From NCBI GenBank assembly GCA_051294905.1, contig CM119371.1, forward strand, positions 22,508,001 to 22,572,000: a DNA stretch of 64,000 bases. The letters run 5' to 3'. This DNA is from Botryllus schlosseri. Its lineage: Eukaryota. Below, one piece after another: positions 8,572 to 64,000 of the stretch (position 1 is its first letter; every line of letters begins with the position of its first letter). Position numbers and translations under genes: made by a program. The notes beneath the pieces were generated by a model. That model did not search any database. It saw only the letters and a program-made list of their open reading frames with translations, and was not told where the DNA came from.

Positions 8572-9999
8572 TCTTGTACCAAATGGATGAATCGACTGCT
8601 AGTATATATATTGGGCGATAAAGTTAAAGATTAGCTATAAATCAAGATTTAGCATTGATGTAAGAGTTCTGCTCTAGTGTAAGTAAAACTACATTTTCAA
8701 ATCTTTAAGTACCTTATAACGCTCGTACCTTTTTTGATTTCATGTGATGTTCTTGTATCCCCTGTAAATGGCCGTCGAAGTTCAATAAAAGTGTATTACC
8801 AGGAATTAATCTCAATGCATGCTTAGTGATTGCATGCAATACAATCAGTCGGGATGACTCGAGTTATGACTTGACTCTATAGTCACGTTTTTAAAATGAC
8901 TTGATCTGACTCAGACTTGACGTATGAGATGGATGACCCGATTTCGGTGTCTGATTTTACAGTCAATTTTTAAGTTGTTTGCAATGCATTATGAACAGTC
9001 ATAATGAAAAGGGATCATGTCATCGAAACCATACATTTATTTACTTGATTCAGCTACGAGTTACGTTTTCGATGTGGCTATAATTTCATCAGTAGCGTAA
9101 TTGTAGATAACAACAATTCCGGTATTCCCACGTAAATTGATCAATATAAGTATCGTTAGGGCGAAATCACTTACCAGAACCAGTTATATACTAATACATT
9201 CGAGCGTGTATATTGCAAATATATTTATAAATGGCTGGTTCGTGGTACAGAACTTGAATATAGCTTTCAATACAACATCCATTGTAAAATAATATTTATT
9301 GAACTCGAAGACTTTTCGGGTGCCTCTTTTCAAGAGTTAACGGCACACTAAAGGGATTTAAACAGTTTTAAAAGATAAACCAAAAAGACAAAGTATGACG
9401 CAGCAATCAAAATCACAGACCATGAAATTCGCATTGTACCAATGGCAACAATAACAAACTATGAAGTATACGGACGGTTGCCAGTAAACTCGCCCCAAAG
9501 TAAATTCGGCCCAGGCAAATTCGGCTATTACATTAGTAAATTCGGCCCACCGAGAATATTGTATTAAAATGTATTACCAACCGTTAACATGAATTAATTA
9601 CATAATTATACTAATATTAAGTGATTTGGGTGTCAGGGTATGCGTAGATCGCGTAATCACGGGAGATAGCGCGGATATTCACGGGGACCGAATTTACCGA
9701 CGGCCGAATTCACCGGTCAATTCGCTGGTTACTCGGTCAATTCTGCCCTCGGAGAATTTTTTATAAAAATGTATTACCAACTATTAATGTGAATTAATTT
9801 CATAATTATATTATTATCAAGTGATTTGGAGAACAGGGTATGGGTATAAATATGTATATGTATATATATATGCCGATGTTTACGGGGCCGAATTTACCGA
9901 CAGCCGAATTCAATCGGTATATTCGGCCCTCGGAGAACATTGTGTGAAATTGTATTACGAACTAACAATGTGTATTATATTACATAATTATAATATTAT

Positions 10000-10497
10000 C
10001 TAACCTGAACACTAATCCTAACCCAAATTCTAACCTAACCCTAACCCTAATCCTAACCTAACCCTAATCCTAACCTAACCCTTATTCTAACCTAACCCTA
10101 ATCCTAACCTAACCCTAATCCTAACCTAACCCTAATCCTAACCTAACCCTAATCCTAACCTAACCCTAATCCTAACCCTAATCCTAACCTAACCCTAATC
10201 CTAACCTAACCTAACCCTAATCCTAACCCTAACCTAATCCTAACCCTAACGCTAATCCTAACCCTAAACCTACTAATAACTAATAACTAATACCTAATAA
10301 TGTGTATTATATTACATAATTATAATATTATCAAGTGATTTGGAGGTTAGGGGTTAGGTTTAGGGTTAGGATTAGCGTTAGGGTTAGGATTAGGGTTAGG
10401 ATTAGGGTTAGGATTAGGGTTAGGTTAGGATTAGGGTTAGGATTAGCGTTAGGGTTAGGATTAGGGTTAGGATTATGGTTAGGATTAGGGTTAGGGT
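10000..10497. repeat. Degenerate telomere-like arrays: (CCCTAA/TCCTAA)n ~10000-10270 and (TTAGGG/TTAGGA)n ~10345-10497
   Basis: Direct reading; both arrays lie within element 9476-12647. Confidence 0.9.
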
Positions 10498-12479
10498 CAG
10501 TGGCGGCTCGTCCTATAGGGCAACTGGGGCATTGCCCCACCTAAAATTCTGTTCAATAACAGTTCTTTACCATTTAGAGACGCACAGCAATCTATATATA
10601 CCGAAATCACAGCGAAAATCGTATTCTTCTTGTCCTTTCGCTTGTGAATGCCCATATATAGCGAAGTCTGCGAAAATCGAATTCTCTTCCGTGTTTTCGC
10701 TTTGCGAATGCCTAGCCGGGGCATGCCCCGGTAGCGCTCATAACAAGCTTTCACTGTCTATTCTCTCAAAGCCGCGCACAATAAAGAAACAGTGATTTAC
10801 TCTCTCTTATTCATAAAATTACCGAGCAACCGGGGCAACATAGCCTAGTCGCCCTTAAGGTGTGATGTAACAATCGTATCTATATCTAAACTCGGTTACC
10901 GTCATATGCGTTTTGTCGACCTTTGCTGGTATAGGTCGATTTTGATGGTGTTTCACACCATGATAATTCTTGAAACTTGGTATGTCATGTCGTGATGGTA
11001 GTATTTAACACTGTCCCAAGTTACAGGGTTTCTACTTAAAGTTTAGGGTAGTAATTCCGTTTCCGAAGTTGAGTGTGTGCTGACCGTCATGTATCGCAAA
11101 CAGATTTTACTCAAAAGCCGGTATTGGTATCTATTGATTTTGACGATGTTCCATACCGAGATCGGTCATGACATTTGGTACCGTAAGTCTTAATGTTAGT
11201 ATCGAACGCTGTACCAAGTTTCAAGTTTGTCACTGGACTGTGTTTGTGGTAATTTCGTTTCCTAAGTCGAGTGAGAGCTGACTCGTCATTTATCGCAAAC
11301 ATATTTTACGGAAAGCCGGTATTGGTCTCCATTGATTTTAACGATGCTCCTTACCTAGATCCGTCATGAGCTTTTGCATGGTATGTCTTGATTTTAGTAT
11401 CGAACGCTGTGCCTAGTCTCAAGGTTGGCACTCAATGATTAGGGCAGCAATTTCGTTATTAAGGTCGAGTATGGTAGAGATGTGCGCTGATCTGACACTT
11501 AGCCCACCTAACGCATTGCGGATTTCACGCAAAAACCGCTGTATCTGTGTTAACGCTAACTGTGTTCCATACTGAGATAGGTGATGAGATGATGATATCA
11601 TGAAACAGTTTACTAACATTCTCGGTTTGCATTCAAATATTTACTTTTATTTTATATTCTCCAATGTCATTTTCACCGTGAAATTGTGGCCTTCAGGCCA
11701 TTTGCTTACAATTACAACCCCTGTCAAGCGCGATAGCTGTTTCGTTTTCGATGGCGGCAAAGAGCTGATCGCTTGATCAGCCTATTCCTCAGTAAATTTT
11801 AGGCAAAATTCGGTGTTGGTCTGTTCGTATTAATTTTGACAGTGTACCATACCGAAAACGGTCATGAGGCTATTTCTCGATGATTTCATGTAACAGTGTA
11901 CCAAGTTTTCGGCTTTCATCCACGTATTTATTCGGTAATATATTTTCCCAAGGCGATTTTGCAGCAGACATATAGACCGTAAGCCGTATGTGTCGTGTGA
12001 CAGTCTCCAGCCTCAAGGCCAAAATCTCCTATGCTGTACCGGGACCGAATTTCCGAGGCCGCTATCCGTAGTTCTTCAGAATTATGTTTTGGATTCAATA
12101 TGACATGTCCAATCTATGAGATAACAATTGCGTATGTGTCCGAACTCGTTGACCTTTCCAGTTAGGCTTACGCAATCTCTCGAGTTATAGTCATTTCCAT
12201 TGCTGCAGATAATTAGTCAGGTATAGTGCGAACATGAACCGTGTCGAATCTTTGTTACGTACGCCGTTTACGCAGTTACCACACTTCAAGTCACAGCTCA
12301 CCGGCAGACCTCTCGCGGCACATACGTTAAAATCACTGTTGTCGGGAAGTTCGTGTTACCGTACGTAGTCCGTACCACCAAGTTACTTGTTTACGTTGGA
12401 AAACGCCATTGTGACGTCATCTTGATAAAAAGTCGCTTGCACTAGCCCCACCACCCGATATTGTCACGAGCCGCCACTG
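10498..12479. mobile_element. hAT-like non-autonomous element inserted in the TTAGGG array
   Basis: 14-bp TIR CAGTGGCGGCTCGT/ACGAGCCGCCACTG; 8-bp TSD GTTAGGGT; internal degenerate ~200-bp tandem units (~10870-11950). Confidence 0.88.
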
Positions 12480-28838: not shown

Positions 28839-28910
28839 GCTGTGATCGTATAGTGGTTAGTGCATCGGGTTGTGGCCGTGATAACCCGGGTTTGAACCCT
28901 GGTCATAACA
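28839..28910 (+). tRNA. tRNA-His(GTG)-like gene, probably a pseudogene
   Basis: GCTGTGATCGTATAGTGGTTAGT...GTTGTGGCC...; acceptor-stem mismatch and T-loop TTTGAAC instead of TTCGAA. Confidence 0.75.
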
Positions 28911-29359
28911 CTGTCTTGCGACCTCTACTTGATCCTGACGCCGTGACGATAGCCATTACGGACTAAACAAACAGAGTCTATGATGCGTCATTGATACTTC
29001 ATATCAGTTTTCTCTCATCTATTGTGTGTCTGAGCCGTAGTAAACAGTAATGAAAAGTAATTATGAACGGTGGCGCTCGTTCATTCATCATTGCCCATAA
29101 CAAGGTGCTAATTACATGATTGCTTTGCAGTCAGAAGGGGATATGATTCGTATTTTAAAGAATTTGGAACACGGATCCAGTGGTACCCATGGCGGGTATA
29201 CTACACTAGAGCCACAAGTCTCGTTGAGTGTAGGCCTATATATAAAAAATATGTTGGCTTTGATATTGTGGTATCTGCTTGGCTAATAAATCTAATATGG
29301 GATTAAAGCGTAATTATGACCACTCGCACACGAGTCGATGGCATGTTCCATCGTTTTAC

Positions 29360-59889: not shown

Positions 59890-60528
59890 GATGCACCCCA
59901 TAATAAAGAAACACAAAGTCAGAATCGTCTGCGTGTCACGACGGAAGGTTTTTCTGCTACGTTTGGGCGATTCAATATATATTTTGACGATGCCTACAAT
60001 CCTGATAGGACGTTAAAAATAATAACATGCAATAAACTGATTAATACAAATCGGAAAATGCATCGTCATTAATTCTTTGCCCAAAATTTCGAAGACATCC
60101 CCTACATCCGCTCTATTTGTTAATACGATCACGTGAGAAAAGAATGGATAAATATTCGACAGTATCATATGAAATAATCAATAGTATCGATGAAATTATT
60201 TTTCCAGCAGAAAATAAATACAGACAGCATTCCCTAGCATTCAAACTCCCGATTTTGGTGCATAGATATAGTTAGCCTCCGGCATATCTAAAACTTCTAT
60301 ACGCAAGGGCTATTCGCGGTGCCAAGTCTCCAGTCGCTAATTTATCGTGAGTATATGACATCGAGATGCCATGGCGGTTGTATTCTAGATATATAATCGT
60401 AAAAAGCCGCGGATAGAAAAAAAGGTTGAACACCCCTGGATTAAACTTACTACGAAATCAGCGTGTTATGTGGTCAGGGGTGTATACAAATTAAATGGTA
60501 CAATTTGGTTGGCATTATTGCTCTAACG

Positions 60529-63500
60529 CAGTGGTTCCCAACCTTTTTATCCTAATTCCCCACATCCGATTTATTCCGAGCCTTCATTCCCCACCTAAAA
60601 TCTCTATATCCATAGCTACCCTTTAAAGTGCTACCTCCAATAAAAATTTGCAAGACTTTGCTTAGTAAATAGTACGTTCTATTGGTGATTGTTAAGTTCC
60701 CCGGAATTGATCAGCACACAATAAAATTAACGCAGCAGTGAACTGTTGACCGTAAACGCACCTCCGTAGCCTAAACATATGTATCTACCCCGGCGCGCAG
60801 GCAACAGAAAAATAGAAGGGGTGTTCGCGCTTGCGCATTTCATTTGTTAATCCTGATTTTAGTAATCATTTGTAATCAAGCCTTTTCAGATAGGCTGTTC
60901 TTACCGCTATATAAAGCGTCTGCGAACCACTATTTGTTGGTTATTTACGTTGACGCAAAATTGATTGTAAATCTTACTTAACTTACTTCGGTTCCTTGCT
61001 TTCGTTAATCTCAATTCTGTTACGTTCGTCGGCCGTATGTTGCTGTTGCTGTGCTAAGTGTCAGCTATCTTCATCAAGTTGTATGTTGCTGTTGCTGCAC
61101 TACGTGTCTGCTATCTTCATCAATTGGATGTTGCTGTTGCTACACTATTCGTCAGCTATCTTCATTCGGCTTCGACTGGAGCGTGCTATTATGTTATTAA
61201 AGTTATGGAACACGCGTATGAATTACAACGATTAGCATCCGTAGATAACCCCATAGACAGGCTTCTGCGCCTATAATCGGCAGCGCAGGATTCGGACTGC
61301 CGCGCAGAAACAATTTACAATTAATTTGCAATCTACAATCAATTCGCCGGTGGAAGATTTCCTTTCGAATGCTCTCTACATTGAAGAGGGCGTTTTCTCT
61401 TGGACGGAGCGGACGATTGCGATGTTTCCACAGTGTATGTTCACCGTCTCGCCAATCGAGAGCTCGGTTTCATTCCGTCAGTTCAGTCCGTCCAACAACG
61501 CGTTGATCTTGTCTACAGCATTCTCCGTTTGTCTGAAAATCACATAGATTGCATGGCTGGCACATTCAGGATCATTGCAAAGATGGCGGCGCAACTGCAT
61601 GGAGAGTATATTCTTCTCTCTCCAGATGATATCACCAGGGACCATATTCACTCGGGTGCTTGAGTCACAGTTGCCGACAGAAATGCACAAACGTGGGATG
61701 CGGAAGATTGAAACAACCTCTTCGAGCGGATTGTCATTCAAGGCAGCAGAGGGTCAAGACGGAACAATTTATCTGCACAGACATTCATTCCTCTGCGCAG
61801 TCCTTTCAGTTTCGCCCTCGCTACCGTTCCCTTATGGTATTGACGCACATCATCTGTTAGATTTGTGTCAGGCACCTCGCATCGAAAGGAGAATTCGGCA
61901 ATTTGAAGAACTTCTACCGAGCAATGCCGGAAATATTGTTATGATTCCGGAATATTCATTTCCAGCTATTGCACGTTGCGGGGACGCCTCTAAGATTATT
62001 TCGACTTTTCCGAAGGTGACGAATTTTCCAGAGTGTGATACGATTCATCCGACATCGAGAGTCATCATCACGCGCCTAAGTGAAACTGTCCAAGTTGAGT
62101 CGCGTTCGATTGTCTGCGTTCAGCCATTGTGATTTATTCTCGTCGCTTGTAGACATGCTGAACGCCTCGTTACCAATTCAAAGTGATCTATTATCATCGC
62201 TTGTGTAGAGTTGCTGACTACTTCCATATTTATTCCAAATAATTTATTCTTCTCGCCTGTATAGAGATGTCGAACGCCACCCTGCCATTTAAAAAGTGAT
62301 TCATTCTCATCGCTTGTAGAGCTGGTGAACGCCTTTCTACTATTTAAGGTGATATATATAGAATGTATTTTGGATCGGAGGTTCAGCAGCTCTTTGTATG
62401 TTGGTCATTGTACAATCTGACTTTGCCTTGTACAATCTCACTTTGCCTATGTGGATGATGATTCGGAACTTGTATTACATTGACAATTCTGTTGACTGGG
62501 ATCAGTCAAATGGGGGAGTGTTCGCGCTTGCGCATTTCATTTGTTAATCCTGATTTTAGTAATCATTTGTAATCAAGCCTTTTCAGATAGGCTGTTCTTA
62601 CCGCTATATAAAGCGTCTGCGAACCACTATTTGTTGGTTATTTACGTTGACGCAAAATTGATTGTAAATCTTACTTAACTTACTTCGGTTCCTTGCTTTC
62701 GTTAATCTCAATTCTGTTACGTTCGTCGGCCGTATGTTGCTGTTGCTGTGCTAAGTGTCAGCTATCTTCATCAAGTTGTATGTTGCTGTTGCTGCACTAC
62801 GTGTCTGCTATCTTCATCAATTGGATGTTGCTGTTGCTACACTATTCGTCAGCTATCTTCATTCGGCTTCGACTGGAGCGTGCTATTATGTTATTAAAGT
62901 TATGGAACACGCGTATGAATTACAACGATTAGCATCCGTAGATAACCCCATAGACAGGCTTCTGCGCCTATAATCGGCAGCGCAGGATTCGGACTGCCGC
63001 GCAGAAACAAGGGGTTTGAAAATTTTTCAAATGTTTCGGGGTAACATCAATTTACATACGTAAATTAGATAAACCTCCTGATGTTGACGAGCTTATGCGT
63101 GCGATATATATATAGGCCGCCGTAAAATACACTTTCGCACAATGCTAAAATAACTTGAAATAACATAAATATATAATTTCATTTGTAACGAGTCCGGATG
63201 TGCTATCAATTAGCGAGTCCACGATCTCCCTTGAATGCATGTTCATTGTTCAGCAATATGAGCTCTTATTACAACGAATCAGAATTTTTCTATCACTACG
63301 TTTCGTGACCGATGATGGTGTACAAATGAATGAAAAATTTCTGGAGATAGCGTGTTGATATCCATATAGGCGATTCTCCCTAATTGGAGGCATTGATAAT
63401 ATGAATCACTGAATTGCAAATCAGCTATGAAATATTCCGTCGGCATTTCAAAGCGACATTTAATAAAGGAGAATATTACTTGAAAGATTTTTTCAAAAGT

Positions 63501-63571
63501 GAGTCTATTCCCCACCAGACATCCCGAAATTCCCCACCAGTGGGGAATTCCCCACCGTTTGGGAACCACTG
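60529..63571. mobile_element. hAT MITE hosting the LTR element
   Basis: TIR CAGTGGTTCCCAA; perfect TSD CTCTAACG; TTCCCCAC subterminal repeats. Confidence 0.88.
60822..63009 (+). mobile_element. Non-autonomous LTR retrotransposon, BEL/Pao-like
   Basis: Two 491-bp LTRs (60822-61312, 62519-63009), TGTT...AACA, identical by eye; 5-bp TSD AGGGG; PPT AAATGGGGGAG; TATATAAA at 60908 and ATTAAA at 61196; 1.2-kb interior with weak integrase/DUF5641-like traces (KRG..KI.T.SG..F.AA; GNIVMIPE..KIISTFP). The LTR structure is secure, the BEL assignment less so. Confidence 0.9.
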
Positions 63572-64000
63572 CTCTAACGGCTTCACGTGCCGAAAATGAA
63601 ATTGCGACGGCCAACATGTATAGATCGAAGAAAATACGTTCATTTATTGAAGTAGCTGGTATCTATTTTCCGTCGATACCTACATCCAATTTAAGATATG
63701 CAGTAGCTGAACTGAAGAGTGCCAATGTGGTAAAGAACAAGTTACAAACTGAATCAGCTATAACCTTTTATATTTAGATAGTAGTAAATCAGACCCCAAA
63801 GGGGTCGGCGCGGCACAACACACTAACTTTACCACACGTCAACGTATCATAGATGCGGTTCGCAGGAGGATGTGTGAGACTGTGAGGTGGGGAGGGGAAT
63901 TGAACAGTAGCAGATATCAATAACGGAAAATATACCACAGCCACGTGTCTGCCACATTGCAAATCAAGCTTAACCTATCGTAAATGTAAGTTCTGTTACC

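Follow-up and report, generated by a model that had tools for sequence, protein, structure and literature searches.

A putative self-priming arrangement in BEL/Pao retrotransposons of Botryllus schlosseri, as seen from a young non-autonomous element

Long terminal repeat (LTR) retroelements rely on a specific host RNA in only a few steps, among them the priming of the minus strand, and one locus in the genome of Botryllus schlosseri raises the question of what takes the place of that RNA when no tRNA-type primer-binding site (PBS) follows the LTR. The stretch analysed here (the window; 64,000 nucleotides of GenBank assembly GCA_051294905.1, contig CM119371.1, positions 22,508,001 to 22,572,000 of the forward strand) contains a 2,188-bp non-coding LTR element at positions 60822-63009, all the features of which are given on the forward strand. 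Its 491-bp LTRs (60822-61312 and 62519-63009) run from TGTT to AACA and are 100 % identical, and the target-site duplication AGGGG is present to the left (60817-60821) and, in a matching copy, to the right (63010-63014) of the element. Since the LTRs are identical, a target-site duplication is present and the only coding trace in the interior is a 40-amino acid gag remnant, this is a young, non-autonomous LTR element that was inserted recently. The 5' LTR ends in GCAGAAACA and is directly followed by the leader ATTTACAATTAATTTGC (61313-61329), with no TGG. The sequence at the PBS position, ATTTACAATTAATTT (61313-61327), is complementary not to the 3' end of a tRNA but to a site in the element's own LTR, AAATTGATTGTAAAT (60958-60972; second copy in the 3' LTR at 62655-62669), which is referred to below as S and is the proposed self-primer. 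Judged on the sequence comparisons that follow, it is likely that the element's own S sequence serves as primer in some form, and the specific reading towards which we lean is that of Tf1-like self-priming, in the BEL/Pao superfamily, from the 5' copy of S.

In the window copy, the PBS position (61313-61327) pairs with S (60958-60972) over 15 contiguous bases, comprising fourteen Watson-Crick pairs and a G:U pair at PBS position 10, and the helix terminates exactly at the LTR boundary, with the 3' end of S paired to the first base after the LTR. Beyond a bulged A, GC:GC gives two more pairs, which extend the interaction out to 60955 in the LTR sequence GCAAAATTGATTGTAAAT (60955-60972, containing S). 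A second, imperfect tandem copy of the PBS, AATCTACAATCAATT (61330-61344), which is seen only in the non-autonomous family, forms eleven contiguous Watson-Crick pairs with S, then a mismatch, then two further pairs. An origin of this second copy as copied R (repeat region) sequence from upstream of S was considered and rejected, as by eye only TGC is in common. A stem in the U5 (unique 5') region (61263-61309) lies beside the PBS, with the outer arms TTCTGCGC (61263-61270) and GCGCAGAA (61302-61309) and an inner inverted repeat formed by CGGCAG (61278-61283) and CTGCCG (61297-61302). A predicted TATA box, TATATAAA, is located at 60908-60915. A preliminary description, made from the letters of the window alone, had placed the LTR end, leader, S site, TATA box, second PBS copy and U5 stems correctly, and a register table bore out its count of fifteen contiguous pairs, including one G:U pair, plus two after a bulge in a helix ending at the LTR boundary; the pairing of the second tandem copy with the same LTR site holds too.

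The arrangement is a property of the family to which the window element belongs (A'), as well as of its autonomous partner (family A) and of further BEL/Pao families (B to D) in the same genome (495.5 Mb in 219 contigs), which holds many copies of the element, the best 40 of 241 candidate matches having been scored. Genome-wide, at least 29 LTR-leader junctions with no more than three mismatches to a 28-mer were found, 17 of them exact, compared with 0 for the reversed control. All 29 begin with ATTTACAA or a near variant, one reading TTATACAA, and none (0/29) starts as a TGG-type PBS; the preliminary description had allowed that sister copies might retain a normal tRNA PBS that was deleted here, and they do not. 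An A occupies 60963 in 16 of the 17 aligned copies, where the window has G, and the family norm is thus 15 Watson-Crick pairs. Among the 17 copies the helix measures 15 bp in eleven and 14 bp in two, with lengths of 10, 9, 8 and 5 bp in four visibly decayed copies.

Family A was traced via junction variants that diverge after 14 bases, and comprises six elements of ~6.6 kb (one of 8.4 kb) with LTRs of ~320-360 bp, LTR pair identities of 93.6-100 % and target-site duplications, read in two copies, of GCTGA and ACATT. One copy contains a single frame of 1,924 amino acids, in which SAP, DUF1759 (gag), DUF1758 (protease), a YVDD motif, Peptidase_A17, integrase zinc and core domains and DUF5641 occur in this order, with domain E-values of 1e-47 to 8e-6 (1.5e-47 for Peptidase_A17). 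The Pfam RVT_1 model has no match in this protein, and the YVDD motif was found between the protease and Peptidase_A17. Because the full BEL/Pao domain set is present and in order, the autonomous partner is a BEL/Pao element and not a member of the Tf1/sushi group; no chromodomain integrase, as would belong to a Ty3/gypsy chromovirus pol, was found in it. Furthermore, TGT..ACA LTR ends and 5-bp target-site duplications are found, as in BEL/Pao elements, with duplications of CACCT in family D and GAACC in family C, the LTR of the latter starting with TATT. In family A, S (TAATTAATTGTAAAT) and the PBS (ATTTACAATTAATTA) form 15 Watson-Crick pairs, the outermost being A:T, compared with T:A in A', and the 15-bp helix is found in five of the six copies, the sixth being decayed (LTR identity 93.6 %). 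The LTR pairs of the window copy, two A copies and one B copy are 100 % identical and accompanied by 5-bp target-site duplications; the S-PBS arrangement therefore works, and these elements have transposed recently. One autonomous copy (L032 1-315 and 6900-10000; G000 C6:14656900-14666899) sits in a long satellite array of ~61-bp units.

The ties of the window element itself to BEL/Pao consist of the gag remnant and of LTR/PBS patches shared with the partner. The remnant (61590-61709; 40 amino acids) is 47.5 % identical to residues 385-424 of the partner gag (tblastn E 2e-5) and is the sole match of the interior to the partner proteins. Just two patches of the window LTR align with that of family A, namely query positions 87-152, from the TATA box to the end of S, and 422-505, which cover the U5 stem and the PBS. 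The 1.2-kb interior has no long reading frame, its longest stop-free frame being one of 194 amino acids that was not searched against Pfam. Abutting the 3' LTR is a polypurine tract, AAATGGGGGAG (62508-62518), and the partner families have the same GGGGAGG-type tract. With two LTRs, a PBS position, a polypurine tract, no gag-pol and cis sequences in common with an autonomous family, the element has the make-up of a non-autonomous LTR retrotransposon.

A search with the partner pol distinguished the further BEL/Pao families B (70-71 % identity), C (64-65 %), D (47 %) and E (34 %). None of families A, B, C and D (pol identities of 100, 70, 65 and 47 %, respectively) has a TGG-type primer site and all have a helix of 10-15 bp, which ends at the first base after the LTR in A', A, B and C and 2 nt further on in D. 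In family B, all of the 5' junctions (7/7) have ATTTACAACG(T/A), facing (T)CGTTGTAAAT in the LTR (9-11 bp), and 3/3 junctions of family C read ATTCACAAGA against TCTTGTGAAT (10 bp). The family D LTR motif TCGTATTTAAA is kept in 7/7 copies, and its leader carries, 2 nt past the LTR end, TTTAAATACGA, which pairs perfectly in five copies, with one G:U pair in one and one mismatch in another. Compensatory double changes occur at PBS positions 4, 9, 10, 13 and 15. At position 4, families A and B have T:A and family C has C:G; position 9 varies across the families between T:A, C:G and G:C, and position 10 between T:A, G:C and A:T; at position 15, A:T of family A is replaced by T:A in A'. The change at position 13 is found within family A, where one copy with 100 % identical LTRs carries A->C in S of both LTRs and T->G in the PBS, converting T:A to G:C. 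By eye, families B and D agree in the outer edges of S (GCATCGT) and of the PBS (ACGA), while the inner seven positions differ in a compensated manner. The outer end of the helix abuts GC(A/T) in every family (GCA in A', B, C and D; GCT or TCT in A), which may mark the start or a second cut. Families A, A' and B have the outer U5 stem in common, and C has a compensated version of it (TCC(C)GAC/GTCGGA, by eye). Across four to five families, and inside a single one, the two tracts remain complementary and covary. Of the claims made in the preliminary description, the BEL-like nature of the element is upheld by the domain set of its partner, and the AT-rich chance match that it named as an objection does not account for the conserved and covarying tracts of A', A, B, C and D and of the single copy within A.

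Two attempts were made to reach beyond these families. A metagenome scan with a 19-mer spanning the U5 end and PBS yielded five matches, all of them unrelated and in no LTR context, and the LTR and PBS of family E were sought as a tRNA-PBS outgroup, where in one copy the LTR was not found, this copy being interrupted by other repeats. A very abundant ~220-bp repeat, which forms inverted pairs ~280 bp apart and resembles a foldback element or miniature inverted-repeat transposable element (MITE), interrupts a distant BEL/Pao copy (L046 1105-1326; G000 C1:2591690-2591911). In addition, one family C element (L042 1336-1380 compared with L043, G000 C6) carries in its 5' LTR a 45-bp U5 segment that is absent from its own 3' LTR and present in the 5' LTR of two other copies.

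The first explanation to be weighed is a chance match between two AT-rich tracts. Helices anchored in the first three leader nucleotides were compared, by Watson-Crick pairs, with those obtained from 5000 dinucleotide-preserving shuffles per LTR. Taken alone, the window copy, with nine uninterrupted Watson-Crick pairs when the G:U pair is not counted, is moderately unusual, as 75/5000 shuffles reach this length, and chance could further draw on the core of the sister copies, AATTAATT, which is a palindrome (the window S reads AATTGATT), and on the 12-mer TTAATTGTAAAT, which occurs 392 times genome-wide against 240 times for the reversed control and is too common a word to be useful. The 15 bp of family A, by contrast, was reached in 0/5000 shuffles, while the helices of B (10 bp), C (10 bp) and D (11 bp) were reached in 9/5000, 7-9/5000 and 7/5000, respectively. 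LTRs of the same families adjoining host DNA (3' or solo LTRs, n = 14) give 4-6 bp, and 8 bp in one instance, against the 10-15 bp observed, and when the register is slid by 1-3 nt only 2-4 of 10 pairs remain. Because the shuffle, host-flank and slid-register controls all fall short, the S-PBS pairing is either selected or regenerated in every cycle. Chance is contradicted by these data, as well as by the exact register in four families and the compensatory changes at five positions, and its probability is negligible.

A second explanation is that priming at 61313 is due to an AT-rich stretch within a tRNA, a tRNA half or a mitochondrial tRNA. A search with RF00005, in which the best 63 of ~36,000 candidates were scored, provided 20 stretches, mostly Lys- or Ala-like, and the test set, including the tRNA-His of the window and one tRNA-Val, amounts to 21 distinct tRNA-like sequences of six anticodon types and is incomplete. 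Internal tRNA priming exists, as described for copia elements (PMC3592414, PMC6317226), and a sample so far from complete and so dominated by Lys- and Ala-like sequences leaves room for a primer of this kind. Nonetheless, the best anchored match to the PBS among the 21 sampled sequences is five Watson-Crick pairs, the families have just seven of the first eight PBS bases in common, and with a tRNA primer one would not expect a site inside the LTR to covary with the PBS, which makes this explanation very improbable. No separate tRNA-type PBS occurs in the first 30 nt of any family's leader. The comparison with tRNAs that the preliminary description had proposed thus speaks for its view as far as these 21 sequences extend. 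The only ARAGORN match in the window is a tRNA-His(GTG)-like gene at 28839-28911, the acceptor end of which looks degenerate, and elsewhere in the genome a 20-kb cluster holds more than 20 near-identical tRNA-Lys(TTT)-like genes (G000 C3:34488226-34508096). The Lys- and Ala-like copies that dominate the best genome tRNA matches may be tRNA-derived repeats.

Covariation proves pairing and not priming, and the S-PBS helix could therefore be a structural long-range interaction of the initiation complex or of packaging, comparable to Ty1 CYC5/CYC3 or to retroviral U5-leader stems, with a host RNA as the real primer. Such PBS-adjacent interactions are known and are required in Ty1, where a leader sequence near the PBS (CYC5) pairs with a sequence also located near the RNA 3' end (CYC3) and is needed for reverse transcription (PMC3592414). 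The Ty1 interaction, however, adjoins a normal tRNA PBS, that for tRNA-iMet, whereas in these families the complementary tract itself stands where the PBS would be, and a helix beside a separate tRNA PBS, as in Ty1-type cyclisation, was not found within the first 30 nt of their leaders. Three further points make the structural explanation unlikely: nothing else lies at the primer position that defines the end of the LTR, four families have a helix that stops precisely at this boundary, and a fixed host primer cannot fit the PBS variants at positions 4, 9, 10, 13 and 15. Since the 5' end of the minus strand defines the U5 end of the LTR, the end of the primer must be paired within one or two bases of ..ACA, and S is the only conserved partner for the position just after ..ACA.

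With Tf1-like self-priming from the 5' copy of S, the window element would be copied by the proteins of the autonomous partner family in the same genome. S (10-15 nt; 60958-60972 in the window copy), situated near the 5' end of the transcript past the TATA box, would fold back over R-U5, helped by the conserved U5 stem, and anneal to the sequence directly after the LTR (61313-61327). A cut past the last base of S, presumably made by the element's RNase H as in Tf1, would then leave a 3' OH that is paired to the base immediately following U5, and its extension would give a strong-stop DNA, the 5' end of which would define the ..ACA end of the LTR. Finally, plus-strand synthesis would copy the primer back into the PBS. 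It is established for retroviruses that plus-strand synthesis writes a copy of the tRNA primer back into the PBS; if the same holds for S, then S and PBS would change together because of it, and the family A copy with the double change at position 13 has the pattern expected from a primer copied back in this manner. Our inferences here are that S falls within the 5' part of the transcript, that the RNA is cut and that priming occurs in this way.

The distance between the first T of the TATA box and the start of S is 50 nt in the window copy, 51 nt in A and ~77 nt in B. Within the shared LTR patch, the TATA motif TATATAAAGCGTCTG is identical in the autonomous partner, and a GTTGG block is conserved 28-30 nt after it in A and A'. 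This block, GTTGGTTATTTA (60936-60947) in the window copy, is the predicted start region by motif, and the initiator TCAGTT is found here in family A. On these motifs, S is predicted to lie ~20-35 nt (window copy and A) or 48-57 nt (B) inside the RNA, rather than at its first base.

Several observations weigh against the Tf1-like reading. The predicted primer would carry a 5' flap of ~20-45 nt, unlike that of Tf1, and plus-strand transfer past such a flap is unexplained. The sole TATA-like motif of family C is just 20 nt upstream of S, which may thus lie at or even before the start of the RNA, and S of family D overlaps TATTTAAA, which resembles the TATA box of the other families. Four raw RNA-seq runs carrying the same species label gave 19-104 reads per run on 60600-63200, mostly partial and of 90-95 % identity, with no pile-up of read starts or ends. 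All the families come from one genome, the covariation rests on ~5 lineages, and the tRNA comparison spans only six anticodon types. A D-like subfamily (3 copies) keeps this LTR motif of family D with an unrelated leader, as far as the 150 nt of its LTRs that were compared can show. The minimum-energy fold, moreover, is without the helix in the window copy (0/15 pairs) and in B (0/10). In the minimum-energy folds of A and C, on the other hand, the helix forms completely (15/15 pairs with a mean probability of 0.33 and 10/10 pairs with a mean probability of 0.92, respectively), and the U5 stem is present in those of A' and B. Thermodynamic folding is thus mixed and not decisive, and the folding of the 5' part, which the preliminary description had put forward as a check, agrees with its proposal for A and C and fails to do so for the window copy and B.

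The difficulties with the RNA 5' end would be eased if the primer were S but not its 5' copy, the alternatives being S in the 3' LTR of the same or a co-packaged RNA, or a short LTR-derived transcript ending at S, in a geometry unlike that of Tf1. Whatever the position of the start, the RNA always contains S within its 3' LTR, and such a primer fits C and D, in which S is at or before the predicted start. In A', A and B, the predicted 3' ends of S are ~35-60 nt from the predicted starts, and a short RNA ending there would need no removal of a 5' flap. None of A', A, C and D has a polyadenylation hexamer in the interval 10-30 nt upstream of S, and B has only a weak GATAAA there, while ATTAAA or AATAAA occurs 90-225 nt downstream of S; these positions give no sign of an RNA 3' end at S, and a cut at S of the 3' LTR would detach the template from R and the poly(A) tail. 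An origin of the primer outside the 5' copy is accordingly held to be distinctly unlikely. A broader proposal, which we advance tentatively, is that this BEL/Pao clade possibly self-primes with an internal R segment (~+20 to +57), either released by cuts on both sides or supplied as a short promoter-proximal or 3'-LTR-derived RNA, and that the PBS is re-templated in each cycle, driving the concerted change of S and PBS.

The remaining features of the window LTR lie between S and the U5 stem. A 46-bp tandem repeat with 2.9 copies (61035-61165, and again in the 3' LTR at 62732-62862) is located inside the predicted R region, between S and an ATTAAA at 61196-61201 that is a candidate polyadenylation signal and would place the R/U5 border near 61215-61225. 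Its copy number varies from one to four per sister copy, and strand transfer could expand or contract such an LTR repeat in the predicted R region. The interior of the window element has, by eye, ~4 degenerate ~60-bp repeats at 62110-62350 (..TTATTCTCGTCGCTTGTAGA..GAACGCC..), none of which was reported by Tandem Repeats Finder at a score of 40. The flanks at 60524-60551 and 63555-63581 carry inverted GCAGTGGTTCCCAA-type ends, which are ~850 bp apart when the LTR element is removed; it looks as if the element landed in another repeat, a MITE or small DNA transposon. Arrays of 17-bp and ~198-200-bp tandem repeats are found at 9536-11432 of the window.

To our knowledge, Tf1 is the only element for which self-priming has been demonstrated, with predictions made for some lineages of gypsy and copia. 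Tf1 has a U5 inverted-repeat stem beside its PBS, as is the case here. The PBS of Tf1 is complementary to the first bases of its own RNA, with a helix of 11 bp (PMC7175516, PMC4600332), and its primer arises when the RNA duplex is cut at its end in an RNase H-dependent manner (PMC7175516). The present families resemble Tf1 and Tf2 of Schizosaccharomyces pombe and the Tf1/sushi group in having no tRNA PBS and in the pairing of the post-LTR sequence with their own upstream RNA over ~10-15 bp. They differ from the Tf1/sushi elements, which are Ty3/gypsy chromoviruses, in belonging to BEL/Pao and in the predicted location of S 20-50 nt inside the RNA in three families. Canonical BEL/Pao elements (Belpaoviridae, Semotivirus) are matched in the domain order of the partner, in TGT..ACA LTRs of 0.3-0.5 kb and in the 5-bp target-site duplications, but not in the primer site, as no member of this clade has one of the TGG type. 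The International Committee on Taxonomy of Viruses profile gives a host tRNA as the primer of the Belpaoviridae, with a PBS of 18 nt that fits tRNA-Arg or tRNA-Gly (PMC8742986), and the BEL/Pao element Achilles is described as primed by tRNA-Tyr through its 3' end (PMC4580426).

The preliminary description had regarded self-priming outside the Tf1/sushi group as the novelty. Its occurrence in BEL/Pao is indeed the new point, but self-priming outside Tf1/sushi has already been predicted from sequence for plant elements, namely the TAR lineage of Ty1/copia (Houba, Osr-1) and the Tcn1 clade (PMC6317226). Those predictions and the present one are both drawn from sequence and lie outside the original Tf1 group. 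TAR and Tcn1 belong to other superfamilies and kingdoms than these elements and are unrelated to BEL/Pao. Non-autonomous LTR retrotransposons of Culex are described as having no coding capacity, tandem repeats between or in their LTRs and no recognisable master (PMC3286476); unlike these, the window element could be assigned a partner through the shared promoter/S and U5/PBS patches. No description of self-priming in BEL/Pao was found in the open-access literature, subscription journals not being covered. What is added by these families is thus a candidate case of self-priming in a third LTR superfamily, with a primer segment that is probably internal rather than terminal.

If this reading is true, self-priming would have arisen independently in all three LTR superfamilies, and, should the primer indeed be an internal segment, the BEL/Pao case would represent a third and mechanistically distinct origin of self-priming among LTR elements. 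PBS-based annotation tools, which now report 'no PBS' for such elements, would classify them differently. Furthermore, an autonomous and a non-autonomous family that share only the promoter/primer and U5/PBS patches would mark the minimal cis-requirements of these elements.

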